IMG/VR virus record: IMGVR_UViG_3300006735_004667 | Coordinates: 1 to 55,719 of that record | DNA from: a virus | Lineage: Duplodnaviria > Caudoviricetes | Direction: 5' to 3' (one strand) | Length of the DNA stretch: 55,719 nt | Shown here: positions 8,713 through 26,338 of the stretch, piece after piece | Numbering within the stretch: the stretch's first letter is position 1 | How the letters are laid out: every line of letters starts with the position of its first letter | Made by a program: the position numbers and the translations under genes | Notes under the pieces: model-generated | What the model was told of the DNA's origin: nothing | Seen by the model: the letters and a program-made list of their open reading frames with translations, nothing else | Databases searched by the model: none

Positions 8713-8718
8713 TATTAA

Positions 8719-8726
8719 CATAAATA
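8719..8726 (+). promoter_or_regulatory. Late promoter variant CATAAATA
   Basis: One mismatch to TATAAATA, 6 nt before ATG 8733. Confidence 0.55.
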
Positions 8727-8732
8727 CTGTTT

Positions 8733-11105
8733 ATGAAATCATTTCTAGAAACAATCGTAGAAGAATCAAAAGAAGACAAATTAGATAAACTTACCCACAT
8801 GAAAAAGTATGGTGAGAAAAATCTAAAAAGTCTTATGGTTCCTTTTCCCGCTTTTGAACATATCAATTTAGAAGATTGGGAAGGATATTATCCACCAAAA
8901 AATTCTTCTGAAACAACTAAAAAAGAAATTCAATATCTCATATCTTTATCACCTATGACAGATGTATGGGAAGATGAAATAGTGATGCATGATACAAAAG
9001 TTATGAAAGCTTTTAGAAATTATGCTGATGAATATGGTTTAGAAATTGATTTTGAAAGAATAAAGAACATAAAACTTCAATCTGAACCTATAATTTTAGC
9101 TCTAAAAAGACATTATAATAGACCAAGACCGAAAGCAGTAGCAAAAGAATTAGGTCTACCAATGGACACATTCCCACTTAAAACTAACAAAACACCATCA
9201 TATCCTTCAGGACATGCTACACAAGGTAAGTTAGTATCTCTTTTAGTAGCTGATGAAGCTCCATTAGAACATAGAAGAAATATATTAAAAATTGGTGAAA
9301 GAATTGGTCAAGGAAGACAGATAGCTGGAACACATTACCCAACAGATACAGAATTTGGATTTAAATTGGGAGAACATTTATATAATCTTACTCAAAAGAG
9401 TATGGAACCTGATTTAAAATTAGAATCATTTGAACTTAAAGAAGAAGATGTGTTTATATCAATTAATGATACATTACCAAAATCACCTACAGACAGAACA
9501 CAAATTTATGAAGGTTGTGCTATTATTGAAGGTATGGGTCAAGGTTTAAAAATATTATCACACCCTGAATTTTCTCCAATTTGTAAATCTTGGATTGAAG
9601 AATTTACATCAAATGTTGAAAATGGTGAAAAAATATTATTGAATTATTGTAAAGAACTTGGTTCAGCTATAAAACAATTAGGTAATTTTAAAGATTTTAT
9701 TCATAAGACTGTTGAGGATTGGAAAACTGCAGCACCTGAAATATTTGCAGTAAAAAATCCTGATAAAGTAAATACAGCTGACTCTATTTTTATATCTAAA
9801 GGTACTAGAACAGATTTATATAATCTCATGAAAGAAATGAATCAACTAGATAAACATGGTCAACATAGAAGAATAAGAACAGAAGGTAGTAAAATTATTT
9901 TATTAAACGCTGATAACAAACCTGTTGTAGTATTTTATCAAGTATCATTAAAGAAAGATGCAAAAGCAGGTTCAGCAAGAATTGGTAAAGTTGGAAAGTT
10001 TGCTAGTTCTAGGTTTACAGATGGAGTTGCGTCAAACTTACCTTCAAAAATTCAACAAATACAAGACAATCATAATGAATGGGATATTGAAGCTGAACTT
10101 ATATCAGAAGGTATTCAAGATATATTTAATAAAGGAACAGCTGTATTAAATAGATTAGGTGCAACAGTTTCAAAAGGTGTAGACTTCTTATACAAAAAAA
10201 TAAAAGGTGTATTCTCTAAATTAGCTAAAACAGGTATGGATTTTGCTAAATCATTTACAGATAAACAAGTTAAGACAAGTAAGATAAGTAAATCAGCAAA
10301 TTCAATTATTAAACAACTAGAATCAGAAGGTGGTGTTATAACAGAATCAACAAGAACTATTGAAGCTAAACCAAATCTAGTTAAAGAAATAAAATCTTTT
10401 AATCAAGCAATGAAAGGAGACCCTATCAACAAATTATATCAAGAGAACAAAAAAATTATCAGTAAATTAAATTCTTCTTTTGATATTAAAGATAGACCAA
10501 TAGACCCTATAGTTATACTTGAAGGTGGTGATGTTAAAATATCAACAGATGATTTAAATAAACTAAAAATGCTTGACAATTTAAAACCAGGTGATACAAT
10601 ACAATTAGGATTAGGGACACCTGTAGATACAGTATTTAAATTAACTTCTAATTGGGCTGGTATGAATTACATAAAAGGTATATTAAAATATGTTGAAGGT
10701 AATATATCTAGTTATGAGAATTTATCTACATCATTGTTTGCTCTTGCAGCTGAGTTTGAGGGTGAAGCTAGATTTGGTAATACAGCTCTACCATTAGTTA
10801 TTGTTTATGGTGGTAATAAATTAAAACACATGGGAACTAGAGACGATTTTGAAAGAAAAAAAGTAGAAGATTTAGCTAAGAAAGGAAAAGAATATAATAA
10901 CTTTCCTGTATTAGTAGTTAAAGTTGCTAGAGTAGCTGGTAAAAAATATAATAGTATAAACATATTGTTAGTAGAAAGTTTAGATGGAATGCCACCACAA
11001 CCACAATATAATGTTGTTGGTATTGCTACAAACTCTGGTTCTAAATTTGCTACTAAATTTGAAATCAATACAACAACTAAAAATTGGAAAGGTGCATTGA
11101 AATAA
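8733..11105 (+). CDS. Multidomain putative internal virion protein: CTS-like N-terminus, PAP2 phosphatase, possible PD-(D/E)XK-like domain
   Basis: MKSFLETIVEE; KRHYNRPRP, PSYPSGH, GRQIAGTHYPTD (PAP2 motifs 1-3); NTAD...QVSLKK. Confidence 0.7.
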   Translation: MKSFLETIVEESKEDKLDKLTHMKKYGEKNLKSLMVPFPAFEHINLEDWEGYYPPKNSSETTKKEIQYLISLSPMTDVWEDEIVMHDTKVMKAFRNYADEYGLEIDFERIKNIKLQSEPIILALKRHYNRPRPKAVAKELGLPMDTFPLKTNKTPSYPSGHATQGKLVSLLVADEAPLEHRRNILKIGERIGQGRQIAGTHYPTDTEFGFKLGEHLYNLTQKSMEPDLKLESFELKEEDVFISINDTLPKSPTDRTQIYEGCAIIEGMGQGLKILSHPEFSPICKSWIEEFTSNVENGEKILLNYCKELGSAIKQLGNFKDFIHKTVEDWKTAAPEIFAVKNPDKVNTADSIFISKGTRTDLYNLMKEMNQLDKHGQHRRIRTEGSKIILLNADNKPVVVFYQVSLKKDAKAGSARIGKVGKFASSRFTDGVASNLPSKIQQIQDNHNEWDIEAELISEGIQDIFNKGTAVLNRLGATVSKGVDFLYKKIKGVFSKLAKTGMDFAKSFTDKQVKTSKISKSANSIIKQLESEGGVITESTRTIEAKPNLVKEIKSFNQAMKGDPINKLYQENKKIISKLNSSFDIKDRPIDPIVILEGGDVKISTDDLNKLKMLDNLKPGDTIQLGLGTPVDTVFKLTSNWAGMNYIKGILKYVEGNISSYENLSTSLFALAAEFEGEARFGNTALPLVIVYGGNKLKHMGTRDDFERKKVEDLAKKGKEYNNFPVLVVKVARVAGKKYNSINILLVESLDGMPPQPQYNVVGIATNSGSKFATKFEINTTTKNWKGALK

Positions 11106-12316
11106 TGGAATATCTGTCAGAAGCAGCTGGTAAGAATTTACACTTAGAACATCTTGAAGATGAAATTCTAAACTTTGGTATTGCTGGTGGACGAAGTGCT
11201 ATACAATTTTTACAATCATTAAGAGATATGTTTGCTAGTAGTTCAAAGTCTAAATTAAATGTGACAGTTAAGTGGGACGGAGCTCCTGCAGTCTTTGCTG
11301 GTCCGCATCCTGAAACAGGTAAATTCTTTGTAGCGAAAAAGTCTTTGTTTAGAAAAACTCAAGAACCTAAACCATATTATCATACATACGCTGACATTGA
11401 TGCTGATACTAGTGGTGAACTTAATAAAAAACTTAAAATATGTTTAGACGAGTTTAGTAAACTTGGTATGAATGAAATATTACAAGGTGATTTAATGTTT
11501 ACAGATGATACATCTAGTATGGACATTGATGGTGTTAAACATATAACTTTTCAACCTAACACTATATTGTATGCTGTTGAAGCTGACTCAAAAATAGGTA
11601 GACAAATTTCAAGTGCAAAGATTGGTGTAGTTTGGCATACAACATATAAAGGTGATTCTATTGAAAATTTAAAAGCATCATTTGGTGCAAAGATACCTAG
11701 TAAATCATCAAAAGTATGGCAAGATGATGCAACATATAGAGATGTATCAGGTAGAGCTACATTCACAGCTAAAGAAACTGTAGAAGTCACAAAATTATTA
11801 TCAGCAGCCGGTAAACAATTTCAAAGAATAAATTCAGGTTCTTTTAATGAGTTTTTAAGATGGCAAGATAGTTTAGGAACATCTGCATCAGGAGCAGGGT
11901 TTAAAACTTATTTGAATACATTTACAAGAGCTGGTAAAACATTACCAAAAGGTAAAGATGCTGTAAAATCATATCAAGCACATTTTACTAATTGGTGGAG
12001 TAAAAATAAATCAGATAGTCCTGTACAAAAATCTAAATTAAGAGAACATTTAAGAGTAATTAAAAAATCTTTAAAAACTTTAGAACAAGTTGTTGACTTT
12101 ATCAGATTTTTGATACAAGCAAAGCTGATGATAGTAAAAAAGATGGACCAAGCAAAAGGTCTAGCAAAAACATTTGTAAAAACAAGTCAAGGTTTGAAAG
12201 TAGTTGCACCAGAAGGATATGTAGCTATTGACAGAAAAGGTGAAGCTGTTAAAATTGTAGATAAAATGGAATTTAGTTTTAATAACTTTACTGTAGCTAA
12301 AAATTGGGATAAATAG
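11105..12316 (+). CDS. Conserved T4-like protein (DUF6267-like) with ATP-dependent ligase-type motifs
   Basis: MEYLSE; HLEHLED, VTVKWDG (motif I), LQGDL, PEGYV, VKIV. Confidence 0.65.
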   Translation: MEYLSEAAGKNLHLEHLEDEILNFGIAGGRSAIQFLQSLRDMFASSSKSKLNVTVKWDGAPAVFAGPHPETGKFFVAKKSLFRKTQEPKPYYHTYADIDADTSGELNKKLKICLDEFSKLGMNEILQGDLMFTDDTSSMDIDGVKHITFQPNTILYAVEADSKIGRQISSAKIGVVWHTTYKGDSIENLKASFGAKIPSKSSKVWQDDATYRDVSGRATFTAKETVEVTKLLSAAGKQFQRINSGSFNEFLRWQDSLGTSASGAGFKTYLNTFTRAGKTLPKGKDAVKSYQAHFTNWWSKNKSDSPVQKSKLREHLRVIKKSLKTLEQVVDFIRFLIQAKLMIVKKMDQAKGLAKTFVKTSQGLKVVAPEGYVAIDRKGEAVKIVDKMEFSFNNFTVAKNWDK

Positions 12317-12320
12317 TAAT

Positions 12321-12755
12321 ATGAAAGACAAAAACGCAATAGTACAATCATTTAATAGTAAATGGAAGTATCGTAAAGACAAACATCAATATGGTATGAG
12401 AGATGCTTGGAAAATAATATACTCACAAAATGCTGAAGGTAAATATGAAGGAGATTGTGAAGACTACGCTCTTTCTATTTTATATAGATTAGCTGGTGAA
12501 AGTCATTTAAAGATGTGGTGGTTATTAATTACTCACCAAGCAGGTATTTGTTTAGTAGGACCAAGTAAACTTAAAACATCACATGCTGTCTTAAGATACG
12601 AAGGTGAATATATTGATAACCAGACTAGAAAGTTTGGACCAAAATATGAAATAGAAAGAAATTATAAATTTCATATTTTTTATGGATATGGTTGGGCATA
12701 TATGACAGCTTTAAAAATGATTATAAGTAAAGTTGTAAGGACACTAAAGAAATGA
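12321..12755 (+). CDS. Transglutaminase-like cysteine protease (BTLCP/LapG-like)
   Basis: GDCEDYA, HAVL, IDN: Cys-His-Asp triad pattern. Confidence 0.7.
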   Translation: MKDKNAIVQSFNSKWKYRKDKHQYGMRDAWKIIYSQNAEGKYEGDCEDYALSILYRLAGESHLKMWWLLITHQAGICLVGPSKLKTSHAVLRYEGEYIDNQTRKFGPKYEIERNYKFHIFYGYGWAYMTALKMIISKVVRTLKK

Positions 12756-13624
12756 AAGAAAGAAAACAACCTCAAGACCCTACAGTAAAAGATGAACCAG
12801 GTACACAACCTAAGAAGTATTACAAAGGGTTGAGTAAAGACGATAAAGAAGCACGAGCAAAACACTTTGCAAAAGGTGGTAAAGGTCCTGCTCCGGGTGA
12901 TATAGATGATGATGGTGATAAAGTTAAGACTAAACCAAGTAAACATACTTTGAAATTTAGAAAAATGTTTGGAGAGAGTAATCCTGACAAATCATTAAAT
13001 GATAAAGCTAAGAAGTCAGGTATATCTGTTAGTATACTTAAACAAGTATTTAAGAGAGGTGTAAAAGCTTGGCAGACAGGACATAGACCCGGTACAACAG
13101 CTGTGCAGTGGGGTCATGCACGCGTTAATTCTTTTATTACTAAAGGTAAAGGAACATGGGGTAAAGCTGATAAAGATTTAGCTGATAAAGTTAGAAAAAC
13201 AGAACAAGTAGAAGCTGTATCAAGTGCTCAACAAGCAGCAATAGCTATTTCTAAAAAAGAAAAAGCAGGTAAACCTGGATATGATAAACATGGTAAATCG
13301 TTAAAGAATAAAAAGAAAAACGAAAGTTTATGGGATAATATCAGAAAAAAAAGAGAGAGAATTAAAAAGGGTTCTGGTGAAAAAATGAGAAAGAAAGGAG
13401 ACAAAGGAGCTCCTACTGCAGCCCAAATGAAACGAGCAGAAAGTCTTTGGGATAATATCAGAAAGAAAAGAGCAAGAATAGCTAAAGGCTCGGGTGAAAA
13501 AATGGGTGCAAAAGGTAGTGTATCAAAGAAACAATTTGATACAAGTGTAAAATTTAGTGACAGTCCTAGAGCTGACGCTGCTAGAAAAAGAAAGAACAAA
13601 ATGAAAGGTAAAGCTAAGAAATGA
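12752..13624 (+). CDS. Basic modular protein (DUF5824-like) with duplicated ESLWDNIRKKR module
   Basis: QPKKYYKGL, KTKPSKHT, RPG...QWGHARVNSF; two repeats. Confidence 0.7.
   Translation: MKERKQPQDPTVKDEPGTQPKKYYKGLSKDDKEARAKHFAKGGKGPAPGDIDDDGDKVKTKPSKHTLKFRKMFGESNPDKSLNDKAKKSGISVSILKQVFKRGVKAWQTGHRPGTTAVQWGHARVNSFITKGKGTWGKADKDLADKVRKTEQVEAVSSAQQAAIAISKKEKAGKPGYDKHGKSLKNKKKNESLWDNIRKKRERIKKGSGEKMRKKGDKGAPTAAQMKRAESLWDNIRKKRARIAKGSGEKMGAKGSVSKKQFDTSVKFSDSPRADAARKRKNKMKGKAKK
13322..13504 (+). repeat. Two 66-nt coding repeats 117 nt apart
   Basis: 13322-13387 and 13439-13504 encode ESLWDNIRKKRxRIxKGSGEKM. Confidence 0.9.
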
Positions 13625-14004
13625 AATCATTCTTAGAACATATAGATTTTGGTAAGTATGAAGGTAAGCATGTTCCTTTAGAAAGACCTATGATTGATAT
13701 TACAGAAGATGATGATAAAGAAATCAATAAACCTAAAAGAGGTGGTTCTAAAAAATTCTATGTATATGTCAAGGACGGAGATAAAGTAAAAAAAGTATCT
13801 TTCGGTGCAAAAGATGGTGGTAGTAGTTTATCAGTAAAACTTCAAGACCCTAAAGCTAGAAAAGCATTTGCTGATAGGCATAATTGTGATACAGCTAATG
13901 ATAAACTTTCAGCTAGATATTGGAGTTGTAGATTACCCAACTATGCAAAAGATTTAGGATTAGCTCCTGTTGATAAAGGAGATGGTGGTGGAATCTATTG
14001 GTAG
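13621..14004 (+). CDS. Conserved phage protein (DUF6321-like) with CTS-like start
   Basis: MKSFLE; KKFYVYVK, VSFG, F..RHNC, ARYWSC. Confidence 0.7.
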   Translation: MKSFLEHIDFGKYEGKHVPLERPMIDITEDDDKEINKPKRGGSKKFYVYVKDGDKVKKVSFGAKDGGSSLSVKLQDPKARKAFADRHNCDTANDKLSARYWSCRLPNYAKDLGLAPVDKGDGGGIYW

Positions 14005-14248
14005 ACCATATAAAGATATTGGTGTAGTAAGAATATTTTATAGTGATGTAAAAAGTAATGAATTAGTTTGGCATCGTGATAAAGAAGATAGAAAAATTAC
14101 AGTAGTAGAAGGTGAAGGTTGGCAGTTTCAATTTAATGGCAGTTTACCTTTTGAATTAAAAAAAGGACAAATATTTGATATACAAGAAGGATTATATCAT
14201 AGAGTAATAAAGGGTAAAACTAATTTAGTGTTAAAGATTAAGAAATGA
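13982..14248 (+). CDS. Cupin-like protein
   Basis: ELVWHRD.EDR, W.FQ, YHRVIKG. Confidence 0.65.
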   Translation: MVVESIGRPYKDIGVVRIFYSDVKSNELVWHRDKEDRKITVVEGEGWQFQFNGSLPFELKKGQIFDIQEGLYHRVIKGKTNLVLKIKK

Positions 14249-15423
14249 AAAATTTTAGAAACATAACAGAAGTAAAAAGTAAAAGTGCAACATTTACTTT
14301 TGGAAGATTTAATCCACCAACAGTCGGACACATGAAACTTGCAAAGAAAATGCAATCAGTATCTAGTGGTAGTGATGTAAAAATATTTACTTCTCACGGT
14401 TCTGATAAGAAAAAAAATCCTTTAACTCATTCACAAAAAACAAAATTCATGAATCCGATGTTGCCTAAAGGTGTCAAAGTATCTAATTCACAATCAAGAA
14501 CTGTATTTGATGTAGTCACAACTTTATATGATGAAGGATACAGAGAAGTACAAATGGTAGTGGGTTCAGATAGAATTAGAGAATTTGATTCGTTGTTAAA
14601 AAAATATAATGGTGTAAAAGCTAGACACGGATATTATAAATTTGATTCTATTCAAGTTGTGTCAGCAGGTCAAAGAGACCCGGATGCTGAAGGTGATGTT
14701 GGTATGTCAGCTTCTAAAATGAGACAATTTGCTTCATTGAGTCAAGAAAAAGAATTTTTAGATGCTTTACCAAAAGGATATAGACTTGGTAAACAATTAT
14801 ACAAAGCAGTACAAAAAGGTATGGGTATATCAGAAGAATTTGAAGACTTTATGTATGAAATAATGACAGAAGATAATCCTAGAATACCTAGAAAGAAAGG
14901 ACAACCTAGAGGAAGCGATAGTCATTCTGATTTATATACAGATGAAAACCCTAAAGGTACTATAAAAGGTTTAAAGTTTGCTACTGTAGAAGATGCTGAG
15001 AAAAGTGTTAAAAAAATAGAAAATTCTGGTAAAACACATGCTCATAAAATTCAAGCAGCAATTGCTATGGAACAGAGAGCAGAAGTTATGGGTAAAATAT
15101 CAGCAGCTGCTGTTTATAGAAAATACATCAATAAGATGAAAGATATTACAAAACAAAAAAATGAATATTATGAGTGGGGAACAGATAAAGGTAGAAGACA
15201 TGCACAAAAATTTACACCAGGACAAAATGTAGTTGACTATGTAAAAAGAATAAAAGAAGCAGAAGATTTACCAAAAAAAGTTTTATTATACAAAGAAAAA
15301 ATGTATAAAGAATTGAAAAAAGAAAGAAAAGACTTTGTAAAGAAACACGGAGATAAAGCTGATTCAATAATGCATGCTACTGCTATGAATATGGCAAAGA
15401 GGAAATATGGAATCGATTCTTAA
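14245..15423 (+). CDS. HIGH-class nucleotidyltransferase (cytidylyltransferase-like) fused to C-terminal modules
   Basis: MKNFRNITE; FGRFNPPTVGH, VVGSDR, SAG.RDPD, MSASKMR; then HSDLYTDENPKGT and WGTD...TPGQ modules. Confidence 0.8.
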   Translation: MKNFRNITEVKSKSATFTFGRFNPPTVGHMKLAKKMQSVSSGSDVKIFTSHGSDKKKNPLTHSQKTKFMNPMLPKGVKVSNSQSRTVFDVVTTLYDEGYREVQMVVGSDRIREFDSLLKKYNGVKARHGYYKFDSIQVVSAGQRDPDAEGDVGMSASKMRQFASLSQEKEFLDALPKGYRLGKQLYKAVQKGMGISEEFEDFMYEIMTEDNPRIPRKKGQPRGSDSHSDLYTDENPKGTIKGLKFATVEDAEKSVKKIENSGKTHAHKIQAAIAMEQRAEVMGKISAAAVYRKYINKMKDITKQKNEYYEWGTDKGRRHAQKFTPGQNVVDYVKRIKEAEDLPKKVLLYKEKMYKELKKERKDFVKKHGDKADSIMHATAMNMAKRKYGIDS

Positions 15424-17373: not shown

Positions 17374-17383
17374 GAGAAATAAT

Positions 17384-17770: not shown

Positions 17771-17775
17771 AGAAT

Positions 17776-17783
17776 TATAAATA
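17776..17783 (+). promoter_or_regulatory. T4 late promoter TATAAATA (tandem CATAAATA follows)
   Basis: Consensus, intergenic. Confidence 0.75.
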
Positions 17784-17814
17784 CATAAATACATTACAAT
17801 AACGGAGAAAAGCC

Positions 17815-18090
17815 ATGTCAATATGGAAACCAATTACAACTGAAGCAGCATTAGGAACAAGTACAGGTGCAGCATCAAATGTCGGTAAAAGCAGATATGT
17901 CAGATTATTAAATACAGCAGCTGTGGGAACAGAACATTTAGTGACACTAGAAGAATCTGGTGGTACTGATATTGGTACATTTAGTATAGAAGGACAAATG
18001 GAATGTCTTATTCAAAAAGACCCAACTGACCAATTATTTGCAGCTAACGCAGCAGTTCTAGCTGTTGGTGTAGCAATCAACTCAAACTAA
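17815..18090 (+). CDS. Small putative virion protein
   Basis: Late promoter, SD GGAG, Ala/Thr/Gly-rich. Confidence 0.6.
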   Translation: MSIWKPITTEAALGTSTGAASNVGKSRYVRLLNTAAVGTEHLVTLEESGGTDIGTFSIEGQMECLIQKDPTDQLFAANAAVLAVGVAINSN

Positions 18091-18100
18091 GAATAACATT

Positions 18101-20776
18101 ATGAAAGAAACTACAACTATTACTGACTTTAAAGACCTACGAAAAATAATCGGAGAAGTCACAACAAAGAAACCTGCAAAAACAAGATATCAACAACAAG
18201 CAGAAAAAATGGGTTATACTAAAGACCCTAAAGTAGTTGTTAATGAAAGATTTACACCAGATAAAATTAGAGGTTTTGAAAGAGTAATTGATTTCTATGT
18301 TCAGTTTAGAGGTGGTAGAGGTGATAGAATTACTTCACCAGAAAACAAAAAAGACTTTGAAGCAGCAAAGAAAATGATTACCGCATACGGTAGAAAACAT
18401 AAGTTAAATATCAAAGACCACCCAAGACAACAAATTTACGGTACACCACAAGAAGGTTCAAGTGCATATAAGATTAGTTTGTATGCAAAATTTCACACTA
18501 GTGACCCAAATCATGATTTAAGACCATTACTTACTCAAATATCAAAACTTAAAACAGCAGAAGACCATGGTGGTGGTTATGATAAACCAATCAATGAAGA
18601 TGTATTTGTTCACACTAAAGACCCAAAAGTATTTACAGCATTACAGAAGATTGCAAAACAAACAGGTAATAAAGTTAAAAAACAATCTGGTGGTATCAAG
18701 GTCATGGGTAAAGATTTATCTAAATCAAAAGGATTTTTATATCAATTAGATAAAGTCGATATTCCTGGTTTTAATCCTAATTACGAATCGGTACAGATAG
18801 ATGAAGGAATAATATCAGAAAACTATAGAACTCTTGCAAGAAAAGGTATGGGTGCAGAAACAAGAAAATCAATTAAAGTTGGAACAGTAGTAGACTTCTA
18901 TGATAACAATGGTAATAAAAGAGAAGGTACAATTATTAAATTGGGACCAATTGGAGATGGTTATACTCTAAAAGACAACAAAGATAACAAAGTCTATAAG
19001 TTCAAATATCTTGACAGAATGAAAGCAAAGAAACTACTTGCAGCTAAAAATGAGTTTGATAAAGAACCATTGAAAGGATTCCCAGCTAATGAACAGAAAT
19101 TAGATGAAGCAATGTCAAAACGAGCAACAGTTCAACAATACGCAAGTAAAATTGGTATAGATGCAAAAGAAAAACAGTGGATATTAGACAACGAAAAAGA
19201 TATAATTGTATTTTTACCTAATCAAAATAAAGCAAACAGTTTTTCATTTTTAGGTTATCCGGTAAGAGATGGTGATTACTATTTTTCATTCTTGGTAAGT
19301 GATAAGGGAGGTGCTGACCTACAAAAAGCTAGAATGCAAGCTACTATGGCAAATACAAGAATGAATGTTTTACTTCAACAAGAAGTTAAGAGATATAGTA
19401 ATTTAAAAGGTGATTCACAACTTGCTGGTTATCTTTGGAATTACATGATGAAACATTTTGATAAATTACCAAGAAGTTTAGGTGCTGGTGATACTATGAC
19501 CAGAGAAGAATTAGCGTACGCTATTGAAGATGCAGTCGGTGCTGAAATACAGTTTGAATCATTTAATACTTCTGATTCAGAAATTACAGAAAACCTTAGT
19601 GGTATTTTTGGTAAGATTATGAATAAACTTAGAAATGCTAAGAAAAAAATGAAGAAAATGAGAATTGGTTTCAAAGCAAAAGGTATGAAAGAAGATAAGT
19701 TAGACCCTGTTGGTAAAGCTGATGATGATATTGACAACGATGGTGATACAGATGATTCTGACGCTTATCTTAAAAACAGAAGAAAGAAAATCTCTAAAGC
19801 TATTAAGATGAAAGAATCTCATGAACAAGCAAAGAGGTCACCATTCAAATTAAAATCACAAGCATTTCCAAAAGCTGTTGGTATAGAGACAGAAGGTTTT
19901 GGAACAAGACATGCTATAAGAGAAAACATTGTAGAAGCTTGTGATTGTTTTGGTATGATTACAGAACAAGAATTACAAGTAGAACAAATACAAAAAACGC
20001 TTGGCAAATTAGGATTTTTAACATATAATATATCTGAATTAAATGATGTATTTGATGAAAGAGAAACAGAAAGAATGCTTTTAGCTTTAGAGTCAGTTAT
20101 AACAGATGAAAAATTAGATGTAGTTAATTATACGAGAACTGATATTGATAAAGCTTTAGAAGAAGAATTAGAAGTAGATTTTGTAAAACCTGATGGAATG
20201 AAAGCCAGAGGTCCTGTTTTAAAAATGTGTGAGAATACTTATAACTTAAAAGATAAACATACAGGTAAATCATTTACATTTAAATATGAGGATTCAGATA
20301 TGAAAACATTTAATCAAGTTATTTCAGAAGCTAAATTTCCAAAGAAATTAGTTAGAATGGCTGGTGGTATTGCATTTGACAAAAGATATGTCGGTGGTAA
20401 TATGACAGGTGCAGTCAAAGCTATTGAAAAAATTAAGAAAGGGTTATCAGATGACCCGGAAGTAAAAAGAATGTTAAGATTAGCTAATGAATCGTTTAAC
20501 AATGAATTTTACAATGCTTTATCAGAGAAAGAACAAACAGCTTATCAAAAATTCTTTATGAAAACTCTTAAAAAGTTTAATGTAAGTTCACCTGCTGAAT
20601 TAAAAGGTGATAAAGAAAAAGAATTTTATAATTTTATCGATAAAAATTGGTCTGGTAAAAAAGAAACTGACGAAAACAAAAAAGTAAAAGTCGACCCTTC
20701 TAGCACGAAGATTGATGGTAGAAGAACTAATTTTCGTGAAAAAATGAGAAAGTTAGGATATATAAAGGCTAAATAA
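18101..20776 (+). CDS. Large modular putative internal head polyprotein
   Basis: Short modules separated by VNE/INE/IDE/ISE/LDE/ITE; internal MKTFNQVISE; DIDNDGD module. Confidence 0.65.
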   Translation: MKETTTITDFKDLRKIIGEVTTKKPAKTRYQQQAEKMGYTKDPKVVVNERFTPDKIRGFERVIDFYVQFRGGRGDRITSPENKKDFEAAKKMITAYGRKHKLNIKDHPRQQIYGTPQEGSSAYKISLYAKFHTSDPNHDLRPLLTQISKLKTAEDHGGGYDKPINEDVFVHTKDPKVFTALQKIAKQTGNKVKKQSGGIKVMGKDLSKSKGFLYQLDKVDIPGFNPNYESVQIDEGIISENYRTLARKGMGAETRKSIKVGTVVDFYDNNGNKREGTIIKLGPIGDGYTLKDNKDNKVYKFKYLDRMKAKKLLAAKNEFDKEPLKGFPANEQKLDEAMSKRATVQQYASKIGIDAKEKQWILDNEKDIIVFLPNQNKANSFSFLGYPVRDGDYYFSFLVSDKGGADLQKARMQATMANTRMNVLLQQEVKRYSNLKGDSQLAGYLWNYMMKHFDKLPRSLGAGDTMTREELAYAIEDAVGAEIQFESFNTSDSEITENLSGIFGKIMNKLRNAKKKMKKMRIGFKAKGMKEDKLDPVGKADDDIDNDGDTDDSDAYLKNRRKKISKAIKMKESHEQAKRSPFKLKSQAFPKAVGIETEGFGTRHAIRENIVEACDCFGMITEQELQVEQIQKTLGKLGFLTYNISELNDVFDERETERMLLALESVITDEKLDVVNYTRTDIDKALEEELEVDFVKPDGMKARGPVLKMCENTYNLKDKHTGKSFTFKYEDSDMKTFNQVISEAKFPKKLVRMAGGIAFDKRYVGGNMTGAVKAIEKIKKGLSDDPEVKRMLRLANESFNNEFYNALSEKEQTAYQKFFMKTLKKFNVSSPAELKGDKEKEFYNFIDKNWSGKKETDENKKVKVDPSSTKIDGRRTNFREKMRKLGYIKAK

Positions 20777-20777
20777 T

Positions 20778-21851
20778 ATGAGTTGGACAACACCAGGACA
20801 AGGATATTTTAAATCAAACTTGAACTTGAATGAAAGCATTCAATCAATTATGAAAATATATCCTAGAGAGAACATTAACACTATTTCAGCATTAAGAGAT
20901 ATTGCTGGTGGTCGTGGTAGAGATGAAGGAAGAACAGCTGATGCAATAGCAAATAAATTTATTAGTTATATGATGCATGTTTCTCAGACAGATAAACAAT
21001 TATATGCAAAATATAAAAAAATGAATTTTAAAGATTTATTTAAGAAGAATCTGAATACATTTAAGAAGACAAAAGGTGGTGATGTATTCAAAATTAAATC
21101 TGGTTCACTTAAAGAAGAAACACTTCAAGAAGATGCCGCTGCTGCAGCAGATTTAAAAGCTAAACAAGCTGTTGAAGCAGAAAGATTAAAAGACAAACAA
21201 GAAAGTGAGAATGATGCTCTTAAAATGAAACATGAGAGAGAAAATGAACAACAAAAGAAAAAAGATGAATCAGAGAAAGAAGCTGAAAAAAATCAAGCAG
21301 CAAGAGAATCAGTAAATGAAGTTTCTTTTGATTCATTAAGTCCAGCAGATAAAACTCAAATGTACAAACTCCTTAGTAAAGGTATGGACTTACCTCATGG
21401 TTCACCAGCATTCAAAAAGAACAAAGCAGAACTAGATAAACTTCGTAAGAAACTCAAACTTGAAGGCCAGTTTTGGGGTCAAGATGGTATGTCAAATGCA
21501 ATTATAAATAAGCTTAAAAAGACTCATGTTAAACTAGTAAGAACCAAAGGCGGTAATTATGAGAGTGCTACTATACCTATGAAAGATAAAAATAAAATTG
21601 CACAACTAAAAAGAGATGGTTATAAAGAAGTTAAAAAAGAAGCAGTAAATGAAGGAGAAAAAATGATTGGAGAATTAAATGAAGCTAAAATGCCTTTTAA
21701 AAGTCCTACAGGTTGGAGTTTTAAAGAGGAAGGTAAAGATACAATAGTATTAACTCAATCAAAATCCTCACATTACCCAAGACCTTTTACGAGAATGACA
21801 AAAGAAGATTTTAAACTATTACAGAAAGTAATAAGACAAGTAAAGGTATAG
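20778..21851 (+). CDS. Modular putative internal protein with MSWTTPGQGY leader (copy 1)
   Basis: Shared leader; LNE/LKE/LQE/VNE sites. Confidence 0.65.
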   Translation: MSWTTPGQGYFKSNLNLNESIQSIMKIYPRENINTISALRDIAGGRGRDEGRTADAIANKFISYMMHVSQTDKQLYAKYKKMNFKDLFKKNLNTFKKTKGGDVFKIKSGSLKEETLQEDAAAAADLKAKQAVEAERLKDKQESENDALKMKHERENEQQKKKDESEKEAEKNQAARESVNEVSFDSLSPADKTQMYKLLSKGMDLPHGSPAFKKNKAELDKLRKKLKLEGQFWGQDGMSNAIINKLKKTHVKLVRTKGGNYESATIPMKDKNKIAQLKRDGYKEVKKEAVNEGEKMIGELNEAKMPFKSPTGWSFKEEGKDTIVLTQSKSSHYPRPFTRMTKEDFKLLQKVIRQVKV

Positions 21852-21893
21852 GAGCAAAATAAAATGAGTTGGACAACACCAGGACAAGGATAT
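20778..21893 (+). repeat. Exact 30-bp direct repeat at two gene starts
   Basis: ATGAGTTGGACAACACCAGGACAAGGATAT at 20778-20807 and 21864-21893. Confidence 0.95.
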
Positions 21894-23012
21894 AATTTTA
21901 ATGAACCATTATCAGAAGGTGCAAAAGAAGTTGCAAAAGAATATCCTAGAGATAGAGAATGGCAGAAGTTAGTTAAAAAACATTCAAGGTCAATAGAAAA
22001 GTTTCAAAAAACAGGTAATTTTGACAGAAAAGCAGAAGAAGAATTAGTTTCTTGGGCAATGGATAATGGTGAAATTAGAACTGATGATGTAGATGAAACA
22101 GATGCGTGGATAGATGATATAATACTTAATAATTCATACATACCTGAAGGTGAACCTATTTCAGAACAGATATTAAATCTTATGGAAAAACCATATGACG
22201 ATAAAGATGTAAAGAATGTTCAAAAACTTGAAAAACAATTTGAGAAATTACTCAAAGAAGTAGAGAAGACTATGAGAGGTTCAGGTTTATCTGCAAATGC
22301 GTTCTCAATGGTTCGTTCAGGTATTGTAAAGGGTCTTGAAGCTATAAAGAAATTCTATAGAATTGCAGCTAAAATTCCAATGAATGCATCTAAAATCCCA
22401 ATGAAAGAAAGTGTAATATCTGAAACTAAAAGACAAGAAGTTGATGCAATGAGAAAAGTTTCTAAAGACATGCAAAAGGTCTTAAAAGATTATCAGAAAA
22501 TTTCAACAATGGGTGATAGGACACTTAAAGATACAAAATACAACCCATCTTATAAGAAAGTTCTTGATGCAAGAGACGCTATAATTACAATGATTGGAAC
22601 TCTTAACAATCAACTGTTAATGAATGAAGAACTAATAAATGAAACATCACAGCTTGAAAAAGACCTTAAAAAGTTGAAAAGAGGTGATGAAATAGCACAG
22701 ATGGATATTGTGTTTTCAGATGAAAACGAAGCTAAAAGAATGTTTCCCATAGCTAAAAGTTTAACAAGAAGAGCCGGTGGAGGAAATACAGCTCGGTATT
22801 ATGTGGACTCAAAATATGGTCCAATAATATCTATAGGGCATCAGAATGATGTAGAAGTAGCTGGTGAATTTATAGAGATGAATAAAGTAGCTATGGAAAT
22901 TGCTAAAAAGACAAAAGATAAAAAAGCAAGAGCACAAGATGTTCAGTTAGATTGGGATGCTGATTATGCATCACCTTTTAGACCTGGGACTTGGGCGTAT
23001 CCGGCAAAATGA
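21864..23012 (+). CDS. Modular putative internal protein with MSWTTPGQGY leader (copy 2)
   Basis: Shared leader; LSE/ISE/LME/INE sites; SD GGAG. Confidence 0.65.
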   Translation: MSWTTPGQGYNFNEPLSEGAKEVAKEYPRDREWQKLVKKHSRSIEKFQKTGNFDRKAEEELVSWAMDNGEIRTDDVDETDAWIDDIILNNSYIPEGEPISEQILNLMEKPYDDKDVKNVQKLEKQFEKLLKEVEKTMRGSGLSANAFSMVRSGIVKGLEAIKKFYRIAAKIPMNASKIPMKESVISETKRQEVDAMRKVSKDMQKVLKDYQKISTMGDRTLKDTKYNPSYKKVLDARDAIITMIGTLNNQLLMNEELINETSQLEKDLKKLKRGDEIAQMDIVFSDENEAKRMFPIAKSLTRRAGGGNTARYYVDSKYGPIISIGHQNDVEVAGEFIEMNKVAMEIAKKTKDKKARAQDVQLDWDADYASPFRPGTWAYPAK

Positions 23013-23467
23013 TGATTACTGAAGGTAGGAGAGCACCAGATATGGGGATGCCTACACAAGCAGGTAATAATCTCTTATATGGTTTAGTTCAAAAAGCTAA
23101 ATCTGAAAGAGAATTACTTAGCATGATTGACAAACTAGCTCAAAAATTGGGTGGTAAGTATAAAGATGCTAAAGACGAACTGATTACCAGAGCTGCTATT
23201 GATTTCTTTAATAACAAAGGGAACAAAGGAGAACAAGGTAAAGCTGACCGAAATGTATTCGTTCAGGTTAAAGGAGCTGCAGACTTAAGTGGAGGCAGTG
23301 AAATAAAACTAGATGATAAAAGTAAAGTTAAAATATCAAAAAAAGAAGCTGAAAATATCATCAAAAATTTAGAGAAGGTGAAATCTCAACAAAGACTTCA
23401 AGTACAGAAGGCAATGCAAAAGGATAAAAGGTCTTTTCTAAAATTTTTAAAGATTCTAAATGTATAA
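23009..23467 (+). CDS. Hypothetical basic protein
   Basis: ATG overlapping upstream stop; MMITE start. Confidence 0.6.
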   Translation: MMITEGRRAPDMGMPTQAGNNLLYGLVQKAKSERELLSMIDKLAQKLGGKYKDAKDELITRAAIDFFNNKGNKGEQGKADRNVFVQVKGAADLSGGSEIKLDDKSKVKISKKEAENIIKNLEKVKSQQRLQVQKAMQKDKRSFLKFLKILNV

Positions 23468-23470
23468 ATA
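23463..23470 (+). promoter_or_regulatory. T4 late promoter TATAAATA
   Basis: Consensus. Confidence 0.7.
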
Positions 23471-23509
23471 CATATAGAATTAAAATTTTTTAAATTAGGA
23501 GAAATAAAA

Positions 23510-24103
23510 ATGCCACTATGGGGAGCAACAGACGCAGACGAGTCAAAACCTAAACACTTGACAACTGCACAAAAGAAAGAAGTATATGCGAACGCTAGCG
23601 GTTGGGTAGTAGAAGCAGGCTCTACACAATCTGGAAATGGTAATACAAGTGCTACTCCAGAAGTTTTAGTGGCCATCGGTTCTCTAGCAACTTCATTAGG
23701 TTCAGCAGATATTACTGAAATAGATTGGATTACAACAGCAGCAGACAAATCAGACGGATTTAGTCTTTCTGTTAGAGTATTCTTTAACGAACCGGTTGAT
23801 GTAGATACAGGAAGTGGAACACCTTATGTAGCAGTAACCAACGGAAACGAAGGTACAGGTACAGGTCGTGGACCTCACAACTTACCATACGCTTCTGGAA
23901 CAGGTACAAATGAGTTAGTGTTCACATTAGCAATAGCAGCAGCCAATGCAGCTACAAATGCTGATGATGTATTAACAATCGGTACTAATGCTATGAACTT
24001 GAACTCTGGTACAATTAAAGATGCTGGTACTTCAACAAACGCAACTATTACAAATAGTTCAGCGATTGGAACAGCAGCAGGTTCAATTACAGTAACAGCT
24101 TAA
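23510..24103 (+). CDS. Putative virion structural or decoration protein (Ig-like)
   Basis: MPLWG...KPK.L start, V.FNEPV.V, Y.SGTGTN.L.F; late promoter and SD. Confidence 0.6.
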   Translation: MPLWGATDADESKPKHLTTAQKKEVYANASGWVVEAGSTQSGNGNTSATPEVLVAIGSLATSLGSADITEIDWITTAADKSDGFSLSVRVFFNEPVDVDTGSGTPYVAVTNGNEGTGTGRGPHNLPYASGTGTNELVFTLAIAAANAATNADDVLTIGTNAMNLNSGTIKDAGTSTNATITNSSAIGTAAGSITVTA

Positions 24104-24116
24104 TTAGGATAATATT

Positions 24117-24512
24117 ATGAAATCTTTTAAAAGTTATATAAAAGAATATCATCATTCAGGTGGGATAACTTCAGATGTCCCACCCGATTTCCATAGACTT
24201 GACCAAGAAGATGTAAAAGTTAGAGTCAATACATGGTTAGAAGGGTGTTCTAGTATGGAATATATGAGTGTTGAAGCAGCACTAACACAATTAGCAGGTA
24301 AAATTCAACAACTAGGTCTTACATTTACTATGTCAGAACAAGAGTTCGGTAGTTCAGGTAATATATCATTAAATGTTCATCAATTTGGTGAAAAATTTGA
24401 CCCAGCAGAAACTCACATTTTAGAACCTGTAATACCAGAAGACTTGTCTATGAGTGTATCATATGAAACAAGTGGAAATGGTGGATATAAAATATCAGCT
24501 AAATTGAACTAG
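24117..24512 (+). CDS. Hypothetical protein with CTS-like N-terminus
   Basis: MKSFKSYIKE. Confidence 0.65.
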   Translation: MKSFKSYIKEYHHSGGITSDVPPDFHRLDQEDVKVRVNTWLEGCSSMEYMSVEAALTQLAGKIQQLGLTFTMSEQEFGSSGNISLNVHQFGEKFDPAETHILEPVIPEDLSMSVSYETSGNGGYKISAKLN

Positions 24513-24536
24513 TTTTTGTAAGTACTATATACTTAC

Positions 24537-24908
24537 ATGATGGATATATTTGAAGAACTCAACGAGGAGAATTTTACTCTTTTTGCAATCAGACATTATG
24601 ATAATCCGCAATGTACTTCTACAGAAGAATTTTATGAAGACATTCGAAGATTTAGATATTTGAAAAGATTACTAAAACGATATCATAAAACAGGTGAGTT
24701 AAGAGAAAGATTAATACTCAATCACATAATTGTATTATGTAATTTATTTGGTGTAGACAATACACTTAGAATGCTTGAGTTCAAACTTGAGAAAGAATTT
24801 TGGCCTACATTAAAGACTTGTCTTTTGTACTTGGGATATATTGATGAAAAATGGAAGATAGAACTTCCACTAGATGAAAAAGTCACAAAACGAATGAGAG
24901 AAATATAA
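24537..24908 (+). CDS. Conserved T4-like hypothetical protein
   Basis: FA..HYDNPQC...EF.ED..RF.YLKRL, ERLILNH. Confidence 0.75.
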   Translation: MMDIFEELNEENFTLFAIRHYDNPQCTSTEEFYEDIRRFRYLKRLLKRYHKTGELRERLILNHIIVLCNLFGVDNTLRMLEFKLEKEFWPTLKTCLLYLGYIDEKWKIELPLDEKVTKRMREI

Positions 24909-25478
24909 ATGGCAAGTAGAGCTATAGATACAGTTATCACATTTAGAGTTCTTAAACTCTTAACAACTAAATGGGAAGACCACGAAGCTTATCAATTTGG
25001 TATCATTGATAAAAATGGTAAAAGAGATAAGACTGTCAAAATCAATACTTCTGAAAAGAAAAAAGCATATACTTTTTTACATCGGTTAGTATTCAATCTA
25101 AAAAGACTAATAGAAGTATTACCATTGGGTAAGACTAGACTTGCATCGTATGCTGCAGCACTATTTTTAATTAAAGAACATTGTAATTTATCTGGAACAC
25201 AACTAGATAAAGAAGTTTTTAAGTATCTAAAAGAAGGTGATTATATACCAGAAAATCTATTAGAAGAATTTTTACCAATTAAAAAATTAGAAACTGAAAA
25301 AACATTTCATCTAAAAAGAAGTATGATTATAGATGAAGAAGTAGAAGGCGAAAGAGGTGATACATTGATTCATTCAGGTGCAAAACCTGTAGGAAAAGTG
25401 TATGGTGTACCTTTATTTCGTATGTACAACATTGATAAAAACCAAATGATGATTTGTTCAGGTCATGATTTGAGATAG
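24909..25478 (+). CDS. Conserved T4-like hypothetical protein
   Basis: GIIDKNG, AYT.LHRLVFNLKR, SYAAALFLIKE. Confidence 0.75.
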   Translation: MASRAIDTVITFRVLKLLTTKWEDHEAYQFGIIDKNGKRDKTVKINTSEKKKAYTFLHRLVFNLKRLIEVLPLGKTRLASYAAALFLIKEHCNLSGTQLDKEVFKYLKEGDYIPENLLEEFLPIKKLETEKTFHLKRSMIIDEEVEGERGDTLIHSGAKPVGKVYGVPLFRMYNIDKNQMMICSGHDLR

Positions 25479-25494
25479 AAAAGGAGAATATATT

Positions 25495-25968
25495 ATGGAT
25501 ATCAATAATTTAACACTAAAACAAGCACCATTTCAAGATATAAACACCACAGAATACTTTGCTGGAAAGAAAGTTATTCTATTTGGTCTACCAGGTGCAT
25601 TCACACCAACTTGTTCAACAAAACAATTACCAGGTTTTGAAGAAATGTATGAAAAATTTCAAGAGAAAGGTATATTTGAAATAATATGTGTATCAGTCAA
25701 TGATGCTTTTGTTATGTCAAAATGGTTTGAAGACCAGAATATTAAAAATGTTCGTTGGTTAGCTGATGGGTCTGGTGTTCTTACAGAAAAACTTGGTATG
25801 TTATGTAAAAAAGACAATTTGGGATTTGGTACAAGAAGTTGGAGATACGCTGCTGTTATAAATAATGGTATAGTAGAACAAATGTTTGCCGAAGAAGGTA
25901 AATGTGATAATCATACGGAAGACCCTTATGATGTATCATCACCCGAAAATGTCTATGAGAAATTATAA
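25495..25968 (+). CDS. Peroxiredoxin (Prx5/redoxin type)
   Basis: LPGAFTPTCS, VSVNDAFVM..W, RSWRYA. Confidence 0.92.
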   Translation: MDINNLTLKQAPFQDINTTEYFAGKKVILFGLPGAFTPTCSTKQLPGFEEMYEKFQEKGIFEIICVSVNDAFVMSKWFEDQNIKNVRWLADGSGVLTEKLGMLCKKDNLGFGTRSWRYAAVINNGIVEQMFAEEGKCDNHTEDPYDVSSPENVYEKL

Positions 25969-26338
25969 GAAAGAATACAAGAATTATCATTCTAAACCAG
26001 AACAAAAGTTAAGAAGAGCTGCACGAAACGCAGCTCGAAGGTCAGTTAAAGCACCTTCAGATAAAGATGTTCACCATAAAGACGGTAATCCTATGAATAA
26101 TGATAAATCTAATCTTTCAGTAGTATCTAAAAATTACAATAGAAAAGAACCAAGACTTAGAGAAAAGAAACTTAAAGAGTGGGAAATCGCTGCAGAAGAA
26201 ATGGGAACTACAACAGGTGCTCATATTGCTGGTACCGGTGATGATTCTTCTACAGTCATAGTTCGTAAGAAAAAGAAAATTTTAAAAAGAATAAAAGATA
26301 TGATTGATTATAATAAAAAAGGTGGTCATGATGTCTAA
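25949..26338 (+). CDS. HNH-like protein with a C-terminal module
   Basis: RNYKKEY...RAARN.ARR, DVHHKDGNP.NN...NL. Confidence 0.7.
   Translation: MSMRNYKKEYKNYHSKPEQKLRRAARNAARRSVKAPSDKDVHHKDGNPMNNDKSNLSVVSKNYNRKEPRLREKKLKEWEIAAEEMGTTTGAHIAGTGDDSSTVIVRKKKKILKRIKDMIDYNKKGGHDV

Follow-up and report, generated by a model that had tools for sequence, protein, structure and literature searches.

What does a marine T4-like phage carry into its host besides DNA? T4-like myoviruses that infect SAR11, OM43, and picocyanobacteria rank among the sea's most abundant viruses, and we know of almost no account of what else their particles contain. The question is raised by a run of genes at positions 8733–24512 of IMGVR_UViG_3300006735_004667, an IMG/VR virus record taken in full (55,719 bases, hereafter the window) and estimated to be ~30% of a genome. 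An initial annotation had read 8733–26338 as a cluster of polyproteins that are packaged in the head, cut by the prohead protease, and injected. Many products of this cluster begin with leaders that match those of the T4 internal proteins, the leaders are conserved among relatives, the proteins are modular mosaics, and an [ILVM]xE motif stands at the module borders. We propose, with a probability of roughly 0.55, that 8733–24512 holds late head-cargo genes whose products would be loaded by their leaders, trimmed and cut at module borders by a gp21-type protease, and ejected with the DNA.

PHROG and Pfam scans of the window proteins pointed to a T4-like myovirus, and by its protein matches the window is a fragment of an uncultured phage near the Methylophilales phage Melnitz. 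Megablast of the cluster against phage records gave no match and no near relative. The protein of the cluster's DUF6267 gene matched 461 phage records, with Methylophilales phages Melnitz the best (54.3% identity), followed by Pelagibacter phage HTVC008M (42.2%) and then cyanophages. A scan of IMG/VR supplied 52 related loci (numbered L0xx), and Melnitz was included as L057. ORFs are named below by the position of their first base.

Leaders of the T4 capsid-targeting form

The capsid-targeting sequence (CTS) and internal-protein system of T4 is textbook knowledge, and the T4 internal proteins are basic. In the T4 record, ipII and ipIII begin MKTYQEFIAE/A and ipI begins MKTFKEFTSTTTPVSTITE/A, of the form MKTFKEF...ITE/A (a slash marks the putative cut). 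The initial annotation pointed to six similar starts in the window and every one was found at its given coordinate. Five agree as leaders, and that of ORF 13621 shares the first six residues only. A second type of start occurs on two further ORFs.

8733–8762, + strand: MKSFLETIVE, N-terminus of ORF 8733
13621, + strand: MKSFLEHIDF, with no I-x-E at residues 8–10 and its first [ILV]xE (ITE) at residues 27–29
14245–14271, + strand: MKNFRNITE, N-terminus of ORF 14245
16115–16144, + strand: MKNFKEYINE, internal and in frame, at residue 237 of ORF 15407–16549
20300–20329, + strand: MKTFNQVISE, internal and in frame, at residue 734 of ORF 18101–20776
24117–24146, + strand: MKSFKSYIKE, N-terminus of ORF 24117
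20778–20807, + strand: MSWTTPGQGY, second leader type, ORF 20778
21864–21893, + strand: MSWTTPGQGY, second leader type, ORF 21864

The pattern MK[STN][FY]x2-5[ILV]xE matched five times in the six-frame translation of the window, always on the + strand, in real ORFs, and between 8.7 and 24.1 kb. Dinucleotide-preserving shuffles gave a mean of 0.087 matches and a maximum of two, with 0/300 reaching five. At annotated N-termini of the window alone, the leader pattern occurred on 3/17 cluster ORFs vs 1/40 others (Fisher P = 0.075), numbers too small to carry weight.

As summarized in PMC9026906, the N-terminal 10 residues of IPIII are enough to direct a protein to the head; in T4 leaders, targeting depends on positions 4 and 7 and processing on 8 and 10, and T4 propeptides are 10–19 residues long. 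In the window leaders, position 4 is F, position 8 is I, and position 10 is E. The T4 rule (aromatic or hydrophobic 4 and 7, I/L 8, Glu 10) is fitted exactly at 8733, 16115, 20300, and 24117, and the ORF 14245 leader is one residue shorter. ORFs 18101, 20778, and 21864 have leaders of 18–19 residues ending in [IL]xE, while those of ORFs 11105 and 23009 have only 5–6 residues. MSWTTPGQGY was also found in L020 (14332); the three proteins that carry it are otherwise different and have [IL]xE within the next 4–9 residues, and it may be another loading tag. The pI is at least 7.6 in 13/17 cluster ORFs. Judged by these residues, the leaders take the T4 capsid-targeting form and match T4's own CTS.

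Relatives carry such leaders on non-homologous proteins. Genes of the syntenic block in Melnitz start with MQGFKTFLSE/A, MKKFSEIIE/A, MTRYNKTMSE/A, and MKNFKNHIAE/E, and uncultured relatives have MKSFLQTIQE, MKTFKKFNE, MKSFKEHMTE, MKTFNEFLIE, and MKKFAEFIAE, the last identical to the T4 IPIII leader at 8/10 residues. Relatives of ORF 24117 begin MKKFAEFIAE, MKKFAEFINE, or MKNFKNHIAE. A looser leader pattern matched 68 of 430 distinct ORF N-termini in the window and loci, among which ~40 distinct M[KRQ]x[FY]-type starts were counted by eye. Within 134 kb of the 141.5-kb Melnitz genome, the leader pattern matched eight ATG-initiated ORFs, four of them inside a 9.5-kb cluster and a fifth being a separate P-loop kinase gene (MKTFAELQE/GVYDPN). 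The DUF6267 proteins indicate that the leader is an add-on: L041 lacks it (MAGKNLH), the window's clade has one of six residues, and L054 has one of ten (MKKFSTYLAE/SNNSHMEH), in every case right in front of the same conserved core. The six-residue start M-x-[FYL]-[LI]-x-E was present in 117 of the 120 DUF6267 relatives listed. Melnitz, the nearest cultured relative, also encodes a gp21-type protease (PF03420, 109.7 bits), gp22, and gp23, and in its gp23 SAFLSE/AAPT directly abuts the conserved mature part, where the maturation site is expected, which would fit an unchanged I/L-x-E specificity.

Promoter-like elements suggest when the cluster is expressed.

8719–8726, + strand: CATAAATA, late-promoter-like, 6 nt before the ATG of ORF 8733
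12308–12315: GATAAATA (ATAAATA core), 5 nt before the ATG of ORF 12321
16099–16106, + strand: CATAAATA, late-promoter-like, 8 nt before the in-frame ATG 16115
17776, + strand: TATAAATA, ahead of the gene for a 91-aa acidic protein
23463, + strand: TATAAATA, ahead of ORF 23510

Four late promoters had been named. Those at 17776 and 23463 are exact copies of TATAAATA, and those at 8719 and 16099 read CATAAATA instead. CATAAATAC also precedes the ORF 8733 homologues in L010 and L020. From these sequence elements the cluster is predicted to be expressed late; a look for RNA runs that cover 8600–18500 listed none. ATAAATA elements at 8720, 12309, 16100, and 40780 lie 5–8 nt ahead of the ATGs at 8733, 12321, 16115, and 40792, and ATAAATA or CTAAATA stands 4–7 nt before starts in L041, L049, and L026. 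If used as in T4, elements 5–8 nt from the ATG would make late mRNAs almost leaderless. A Shine-Dalgarno site precedes the leader gene 24117. Neither sigma-70-type promoters (78 vs 87.9 expected) nor terminator-like sites (8 vs 5.4) were informative. At 16084–16150 the kinase-gene codons E-D/G-I-N encode CATAAATA, a promoter-like element inside a coding region that probably constrains the kinase protein sequence.

Modules and the motif at their borders

The genes of the cluster and their modules are as follows.

8733–11105, + strand: ORF 8733, 790 aa; leader, PAP2 phosphatase module to LKE237 (8763–9443), and a 553-aa unit (9444–11102)
11105–12316, + strand: DUF6267 gene, 403 aa from ATG 11105; leader MEYLSE/AAGKNLHLEH; 314.8 bits
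12321–12755, + strand: ORF 12321, 144 aa, transglutaminase-like, cysteine-peptidase-like (GDCEDYA); PF06035 at 24.2 bits, below the 27-bit cut-off
12752–13624, + strand: ORF 12752, 290 aa, basic (pI 10.4); DUF5824, then two lysine-rich repeat copies
13621–14004, + strand: ORF 13621, 127 aa, phrog_7595
13970–14248, + strand: ORF 13970, ~90 aa, no function assigned, leaderless
14245–15423, + strand: ORF 14245, 392 aa, 'cytidylyltransferase'-like HxGH-type nucleotidyltransferase; phrog_395, E 1.6e-51
15407–16549, + strand: ORF 15407, 380 aa; 18-aa N-terminus to LDFDE/G, P-loop kinase (zeta-toxin/AAA_33-type), inner leader, 134-aa module
16549–17770, + strand: two ORFs (16549, 17384), 274 and 128 aa, no function assigned, without a canonical leader
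17776–18090 (with promoter), + strand: acidic protein, 91 aa, starting MSIWKPITTE/A; phrog_19805
18101–20776, + strand: ORF 18101, predicted 891-aa polyprotein; 19-aa leader to IGE/V
20778–23012, + strand: ORFs 20778 and 21864, 357 and 382 aa; MSWTTPGQGY leaders ending LNE/S and LSE/G
23009–23467, + strand: ORF 23009, 152 aa, basic, short leader MMITE/G; ATGA overlap with the upstream stop
23463–24103 (with promoter), + strand: ORF 23510, 197 aa, acidic, 'S-layer domain'-like, leaderless; phrog_11617, E 1.3e-55
24117–24512, + strand: ORF 24117, 131 aa, acidic; last cluster member

The long ORFs had been described as strings of unrelated short modules joined at I/L/V-x-E sites. The tripeptides named exist, with VNE, INE, ISE, LDE, and LSE in ORF 18101, LKE237 in ORF 8733, and ITE9 in ORF 14245. 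ORF 18101 has module bounds at VNE49, INE166, IDE235/ISE240, LDE336, MKE572, ISE743, and LSE809. ORF 8733 departs from the description, with the phosphatase module and one large unit instead of a string of short modules.

Searched against 1.84 billion cluster representatives, ORF 18101 matched 3778 proteins at E ≤ 0.001, mostly through single modules in varied positions. Local BLAST with the best 150 of the 3778 piled homology starts at 46–47, 238, 331–338, 565, 741–746, and 811–815, adjoining E49, E235/240, E336, E572, E743, and E809; an extra pile at 764 had no nearby site. For six ORF 18101 modules in 129 distinct contexts, [ILVM]xE lay at most 12 residues upstream in 109/129, against 27.2 ± 4.4 in random windows of the same proteins (0/1000 reached 109). 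Controls with D, K, or Q at P1 gave 15, 18, and 7, at or below chance, and the P3 residues were L (38), I (34), V (28), and M (9). Modules that open a protein stand behind a leader (MKTFKEIRE/KFK..., MIKFKQLRE/KFKPY...) or bare (MSKEMP...). A point against reading these sites as cuts is that this test, anchored at the query's own sites, cannot by itself separate a cut site from conserved first residues of a module. A cut site is favored because the same three-residue preface stands before six unrelated modules, matches the end of the leaders, and is absent when a module opens a protein.

A second, unbiased test took all internal BLAST homology breakpoints in 709 ORFs from the window and 53 loci, deduplicated by local context. 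[ILVM]xE lay within −8..+2 of homology starts in 45/108 cases (null 19.0 ± 4.0), within −2..+8 of homology ends in 64/154 (null 29.4 ± 4.9), and exactly at the homology end in 29/154 (null 6.0 ± 2.5). None of these values was reached in 1000 permutations (0/1000), where the breakpoints are phylogenetically non-independent and the comparison is a permutation null, not ordinary multi-domain proteins. The observed-to-null ratios for [ILVM]xD, xK, and xQ were 0.70–1.31. Classes of xE with a non-hydrophobic P3 gave 1.06–1.33 in the wide windows and 1.69–1.92 at the exact end, and [FYW]xE gave 1.13–1.94 and 2.69. The x-x-E enrichment that the initial annotation expected was found at borders in both tests, and not across whole ORFs.

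Individual modules change partners at such joints. Five relatives have a 91-aa module in front of the nucleotidyltransferase, with the joint LQSFNQITE/A where the window has MKNFRNITE/V. On either side of the module RFTPDK...HGGGYDKP stand VNE and INE in the window and VSE and IKE in L039, and in L050 the module comes after IDE; the module TSQLEK... has LINE ahead of it in the window and MSWTTPGQGYFITE in L020. The last residues of the phosphatase module are LKE, MVE, LRE, LDE, or MIE in the window and relatives, and in five relatives its [ILVM]xE leads into C-terminal parts of four unrelated kinds. The kinase core is prefaced by LDFDE/G in the window, LDLDE/G in L010 and L020, DLLQE/G in fused nucleotidyltransferase-kinase forms, and MKTFAELQE/G in Melnitz. 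One module can open a protein after a leader in one phage and lie within a protein after [ILVM]xE in another. In L011 the DUF5824 protein comes after another module, joined by LEE, and in Melnitz the counterpart of ORF 13621 is the C-terminal module of a 650-aa nucleotidyltransferase protein. Shuffling was thus seen for cluster modules, in varied positions and with varied partners, and not for residues 238–790 of ORF 8733.

An AF2 model of ORF 18101 from a 70-row alignment (mean pLDDT 65.8) has folded blocks, reaching pLDDT >90, parted by low-confidence stretches that contain the borders at 49, 166, 235/240, and 336. Cleavage at inner module borders is plausible, and as a sequence prediction it is statistically well grounded. 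The longer pattern [FY]xxx[ILVM]xE was tried as a marker of the cluster and rejected: it occurred 13 times vs 5.6 in shuffled sequences, and it is not cluster-specific because its density (0.25 per 100 aa) equals that of other ORFs (0.24).

Probable head packaging and its alternatives

Virion presence has been published for homologues of ORF 14245 only, in S-SM1 and S-CREM2. The 'cytidyldyltransferase' T4-GC190 had 25 peptide counts in purified S-SM1 virions (Sullivan et al. 2010, PMC3037559, Suppl. Table 8), where the assignment to S-SM1 follows from a passage of that paper and the row pattern of its table, and its gene table marks T4-GC190 as having proteomic data. Among 17 listed T4-GC190 sequences, 12 start MKKFS/NxF..E or M/VKSFxQFLxE, SSM1_190 included, and three short forms have no leader. 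The S-CREM2 cytidylyltransferase gp154 was recorded with 3 peptides among 52 virion proteins, and its neighbors gp155, gp156, and gp160 were likewise detected (Li et al. 2023, PMC10665884, Table 3). Virions of both phages were CsCl-purified. In the S-CREM2 record, gp154 begins MKNFSSFLTE/A, is preceded by TATAAATA, and shares 30.5% identity with ORF 14245 over 213 residues (E 2.7e-24); gp155, gp156, and gp160 start MSRFEELRTQKELINLRE/G, MKKLISE/L, and MSSLSE/R. The 'S-layer domain' cluster T4-GC425 was not used as virion evidence for ORF 23510, as the filed S-SM1 sequence looks unrelated. The other five members of that cluster (PMC3037559, suppl. file 3) resemble ORF 23510, and the cluster assignment may be mixed.

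In the mechanism that we propose, leaders of 5–19 residues with an aromatic residue near position 4 and an [ILVM]-x-Glu end would bind the products to the scaffolding core during prohead assembly, as T4 capsid-targeting leaders do. The gp21-type prohead protease would remove the leaders and, in multi-module proteins, would also cut after the Glu of the [ILVM]-x-Glu preceding each module. The released pieces would remain beside the packaged DNA in the head and accompany it into the next host. Predicted cargo comprises an acid phosphatase, the DUF6267 protein with its invariant KxDG, an HxGH nucleotidyltransferase, a P-loop kinase, and many small, mostly basic modules. Targeting, cleavage, ejection, and a role after entry are argued here by analogy. 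Leader-tagged head cargo is likely from the sequence evidence, and the phage probably ships ready-made enzymes into the next cell. The injected-polyprotein reading of the initial annotation is borne out by the leader match, conservation, shuffling, and border motif, and falls short on bulk enrichment, extent, and the architecture of ORF 8733. The cargo may have the anti-defense or host-takeover role that this annotation suggested.

Several observations weigh against this proposal. No head genes were found in the window, and its single match to PF03420 (prohead protease; 17354–17572, 14.2 bits) is below the cut-off, crosses a stop codon, and was taken as chance. ORFs 12321, 13970, 16549, 17384, and 23510 have no leader, the N-termini of ORFs 13621 and 15407 are atypical, and the ORF 15407 junction has F at P3 rather than I/L/V/M. 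Over 5234 cluster residues, [ILV]xE was not enriched (77 vs 65.9 ± 7.1 after residue shuffling), and its density per 100 aa was 1.47 in cluster ORFs vs 1.81 in the remaining ORFs of the window. In the AF2 model of ORF 18101, the borders at 572, 743, and 809 fall in predicted helices, and 8/18 motif sites lie in segments with pLDDT <50 that make up 28% of residues, a weak association (P = 0.098). A T4-GC190 family member went undetected in S-PM2 and Syn9 virions (PMC3037559).

The alternative that survives best, though we consider it unlikely, keeps head loading and limits processing to loss of the N-terminal leaders. Multi-module proteins would stay intact, the inner [ILVM]xE would be the ends of former leaders fused into longer proteins, and the inner MKxF leaders would mark separate in-frame products. 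These two leaders may indeed be separate in-frame starts, because CATAAATA lies 8 nt before the in-frame ATG 16115 and is identical in 8/8 sequences (the window, L010, L012, L014, L015, L018, L020, and L048) with varying flanks, and GAGGA stands 8 nt upstream of the in-frame ATG 20300. In L014 and L015 the kinase gene ends just past the 16099-type region and the next gene follows, split and fused versions of the same genes coexist, and the three helical borders of ORF 18101 fit an uncut protein. Most inner junctions, however, keep only P3 and P1, with the rest of the leader gone and a different upstream partner, a pattern predicted by selection on a cut site and not by neutral decay of a relic; the D, K, and Q controls at P1, at or below chance, also speak for a cut site. 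The internal MKxF leaders of the initial annotation are present in frame, and they may be inner cut sites, separate starts, or both.

It is more doubtful still that the products are not packaged at all, with the shared start aiding initiation on near-leaderless late mRNAs or serving a late cytoplasmic complex, and with the enzymes acting in the producing cell. ATAAATA so near the ATGs at 8733, 12321, 16115, and 40792 may leave very short 5' ends that constrain the first codons. MK starts are common in A+T-rich genomes, and both the leaderless cluster ORFs and the missing S-PM2 and Syn9 detections would be expected. Yet the conserved aromatic 4, I/L 8, and E 10 are T4's functional CTS positions, and the motif recurs without Met inside proteins at module borders, where initiation is irrelevant. 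Leaders also follow ordinary Shine-Dalgarno sites, e.g., at 24117, and leader-bearing homologues were found in CsCl-purified virions of two phages.

Least probable is that the products are disposable filler of the prohead core or scaffold (like T4 gp22, gp67, and gp68), fragmented and expelled at maturation. They are rich in [ILVM]xE sites, linkers of charged, low-complexity sequence, and long stretches of low model confidence, and the motif also occurs several times in Melnitz gp22 and gp21. Against this, the products keep catalytic motifs (PAP2 triad, HxGH, P-loop, invariant KWDG) and folded blocks with pLDDT >90, and homologues persist in mature virions.

The predicted cargo and its place among known systems

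Phosphatase. The first module of ORF 8733 scored 32.5 bits to PF01569 (PAP2; cut-off 27.2) and matched PhoN-type acid phosphatase structures (E 5.5e-7). It carries the PAP2 motifs KRHYNRPRP (KX6RP), YPSGH (PSGH), and GRQIAGTHYPTD (SRX5HX3D, with G for the consensus S), and by these matches 8763–9443 is a class A acid-phosphatase (PAP2) module. Residues 238–790 had only 8 short relatives, mostly fragments, and in the Atlas only unnamed viral clusters at 0.80; this C-terminal 553 aa looks like one rare unit, not shuffled modules.

DUF6267. The start of this gene overlaps the ORF 8733 stop by 1 nt. K56-W57-D58-G59 is invariant in 24/24 aligned sequences, as is EGYVAID near the C-terminus. The protein had no sequence match to solved structures, and its AF2 model (mean pLDDT 68.7, KWDG region <50) had no Foldseek match at E ≤ 0.001 and only helical-bundle matches with VIA. 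The KxDG motif of covalent nucleotidyltransferases (ligases, capping enzymes) is present, and the protein may belong with them, though the ligase fold was not reproduced with the medium-confidence model.

Other cluster genes. ORF 12321 is inserted between the DUF6267 and DUF5824 genes and appears peculiar to the window's lineage, with 2 matches only among the related loci. The tail of the DUF5824 protein holds two near-identical copies of ESLWDNIRKKR.RI.KGSGEKM (phrog_16028, 2 stretches), and relatives differ in length here. The insert of ORF 14245 (residues 207–309) opens after MYE/IMTE/ and is followed by a shared C-terminal module. Residues 520–575 of ORF 18101 comprise an acidic, D-rich DDDIDNDGDTDDSD and then a basic helix, a combination shared by many mosaic relatives and by Melnitz ORF 18520 (phrog_4359). 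Counterparts of ORF 23009 begin MIDE/G in L010 and ...IMINE/G in L020. ORF 23510 is probably a separate structural gene. The cluster stops near 24512, so the region first claimed, to 26338, was ~1.8 kb too long; 24537–26338 (DUF7207, phrog_18642, peroxiredoxin, HNH) has no cluster features except a leader-pattern match at 24540.

Surroundings. The other genes of the window include the following.

2389–4884: gp43 polymerase, upstream of the cluster, followed by UvsX
6572–7957: gp41 helicase, after UvsX
downstream of the cluster: spanins, gp61 primase (28027–29031), NrdA/B, gp59, gp32
from 48.6 kb, − strand: baseplate, gp2, and gp4 genes
225–680: Hsp20
25495–25968: peroxiredoxin
25886–26338: HNH endonuclease ORF with a TTG start, overlapping the 3' end of the peroxiredoxin gene; TATAAATA at 25857
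26883–27107: acyl carrier protein

Hsp20, peroxiredoxin, and acyl carrier protein are auxiliary genes close to the cluster. Melnitz has curli-type genes (CsgF, CsgG, curlin repeat proteins) and an adenylate/guanylate cyclase domain protein annotated at 50.7–56.9 kb.

Known systems. The leaders have the same form as those of T4 IPI, IPII, IPIII, and Alt (MKSFLETIVE/E, MKNFKEYINE/K, MKTFNQVISE/A, and MKSFKSYIKE/Y in the window; MKKFAEFIAE/G in relatives), and the cluster shares with the T4 internal proteins the I/L-x-E leader ends, predicted late expression, mutually unrelated mature parts, and hypervariable content between relatives. Alt is described as an enzyme carried as leader-targeted cargo and cut at both ends (PMC9026906). 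Unlike the T4 internal proteins, the predicted cargo of the window is mostly enzymes or chains of up to ~9 modules per ORF, with the motif repeated at inner junctions. Its leaders span 5–19 residues and include the second type MSWTTPGQGY, and the genes form one 16-kb block between gp41 and gp61. The cyanophage virion 'cytidylyltransferase' (T4-GC190 of S-SM1, gp154 of S-CREM2) is homologous to ORF 14245, has the same kind of leader, and was detected in virions, whereas the window protein has an extra insert and C-terminal module. The passages on this protein in PMC3037559 and PMC10665884 treat it as a lone oddity and mention neither protease junctions nor a targeting leader.

Inner-body and ejection proteins of phiKZ, 201phi2-1, and SPN3US are cut after Glu in a three-residue motif by a gp21-related protease, some at several sites (PMC9026906, PMC5694885). 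They differ in a small P3 (A/S/G-x-E) and in propeptides often >100 residues long that are discarded, and independent modules in a mosaic arrangement are not described in these accounts. Polyvalent proteins (Iyer et al. 2017, PMC5512222) resemble the predicted cargo in joining unrelated effector and enzyme domains in one DNA-co-delivered polypeptide, in their proposed processing, and in a zeta-toxin-like kinase. As presented there, they have their own peptidase domains and MuF-type or conjugation anchors, in contrast to the head-protease motif and T4-type leader of the window. No peptidase or MuF/conjugative anchor domain was found by Pfam at E ≤ 0.01 in the 21 ORFs scanned, and the only peptidase-like ORF (12321) stands apart from the cargo polypeptides and scores below the cut-off. 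The Dar proteins of phage P1 (DarA, DarB, Hdf, DdrB) resemble the predicted cargo in being head-packaged and proteolytically processed, and they act against restriction on entry (PMC5512222), but their sequences are unrelated, their loading hierarchy differs, and they lack a shared leader. CTS-like sequences have been suggested to allow T4-like phages varied protein loading (PMC9026906). A literature search that covered few subscription journals found no account of marine T4-like phages with CTS-type leaders or protease-jointed cargo polyproteins, and nothing on DUF6267.

A broader and tentative reading is that marine T4-like phages maintain an open combinatorial cargo system, in which protease-delimited small modules and enzymes from a common pool are freely recombined into leader-tagged polyproteins and yet always loaded, cut, and delivered. 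The cargo here could then be a nucleotide and RNA-end kit (acid phosphatase, KxDG enzyme, HxGH nucleotidyltransferase, and P-loop kinase) that acts in the first seconds of infection, before phage gene expression, e.g., by countering RNA-cleaving or nucleotide-depleting defenses of the host. If the leaders work as in T4, the cargo of such phages would be predictable from sequence alone, including enzymes delivered before phage genes are expressed. Protease-bounded modules would explain how cargo evolves rapidly by shuffling, and they would provide a natural, sequence-defined route for loading several proteins into a capsid from one gene. Cultured relatives exist, and the idea can be tested now.

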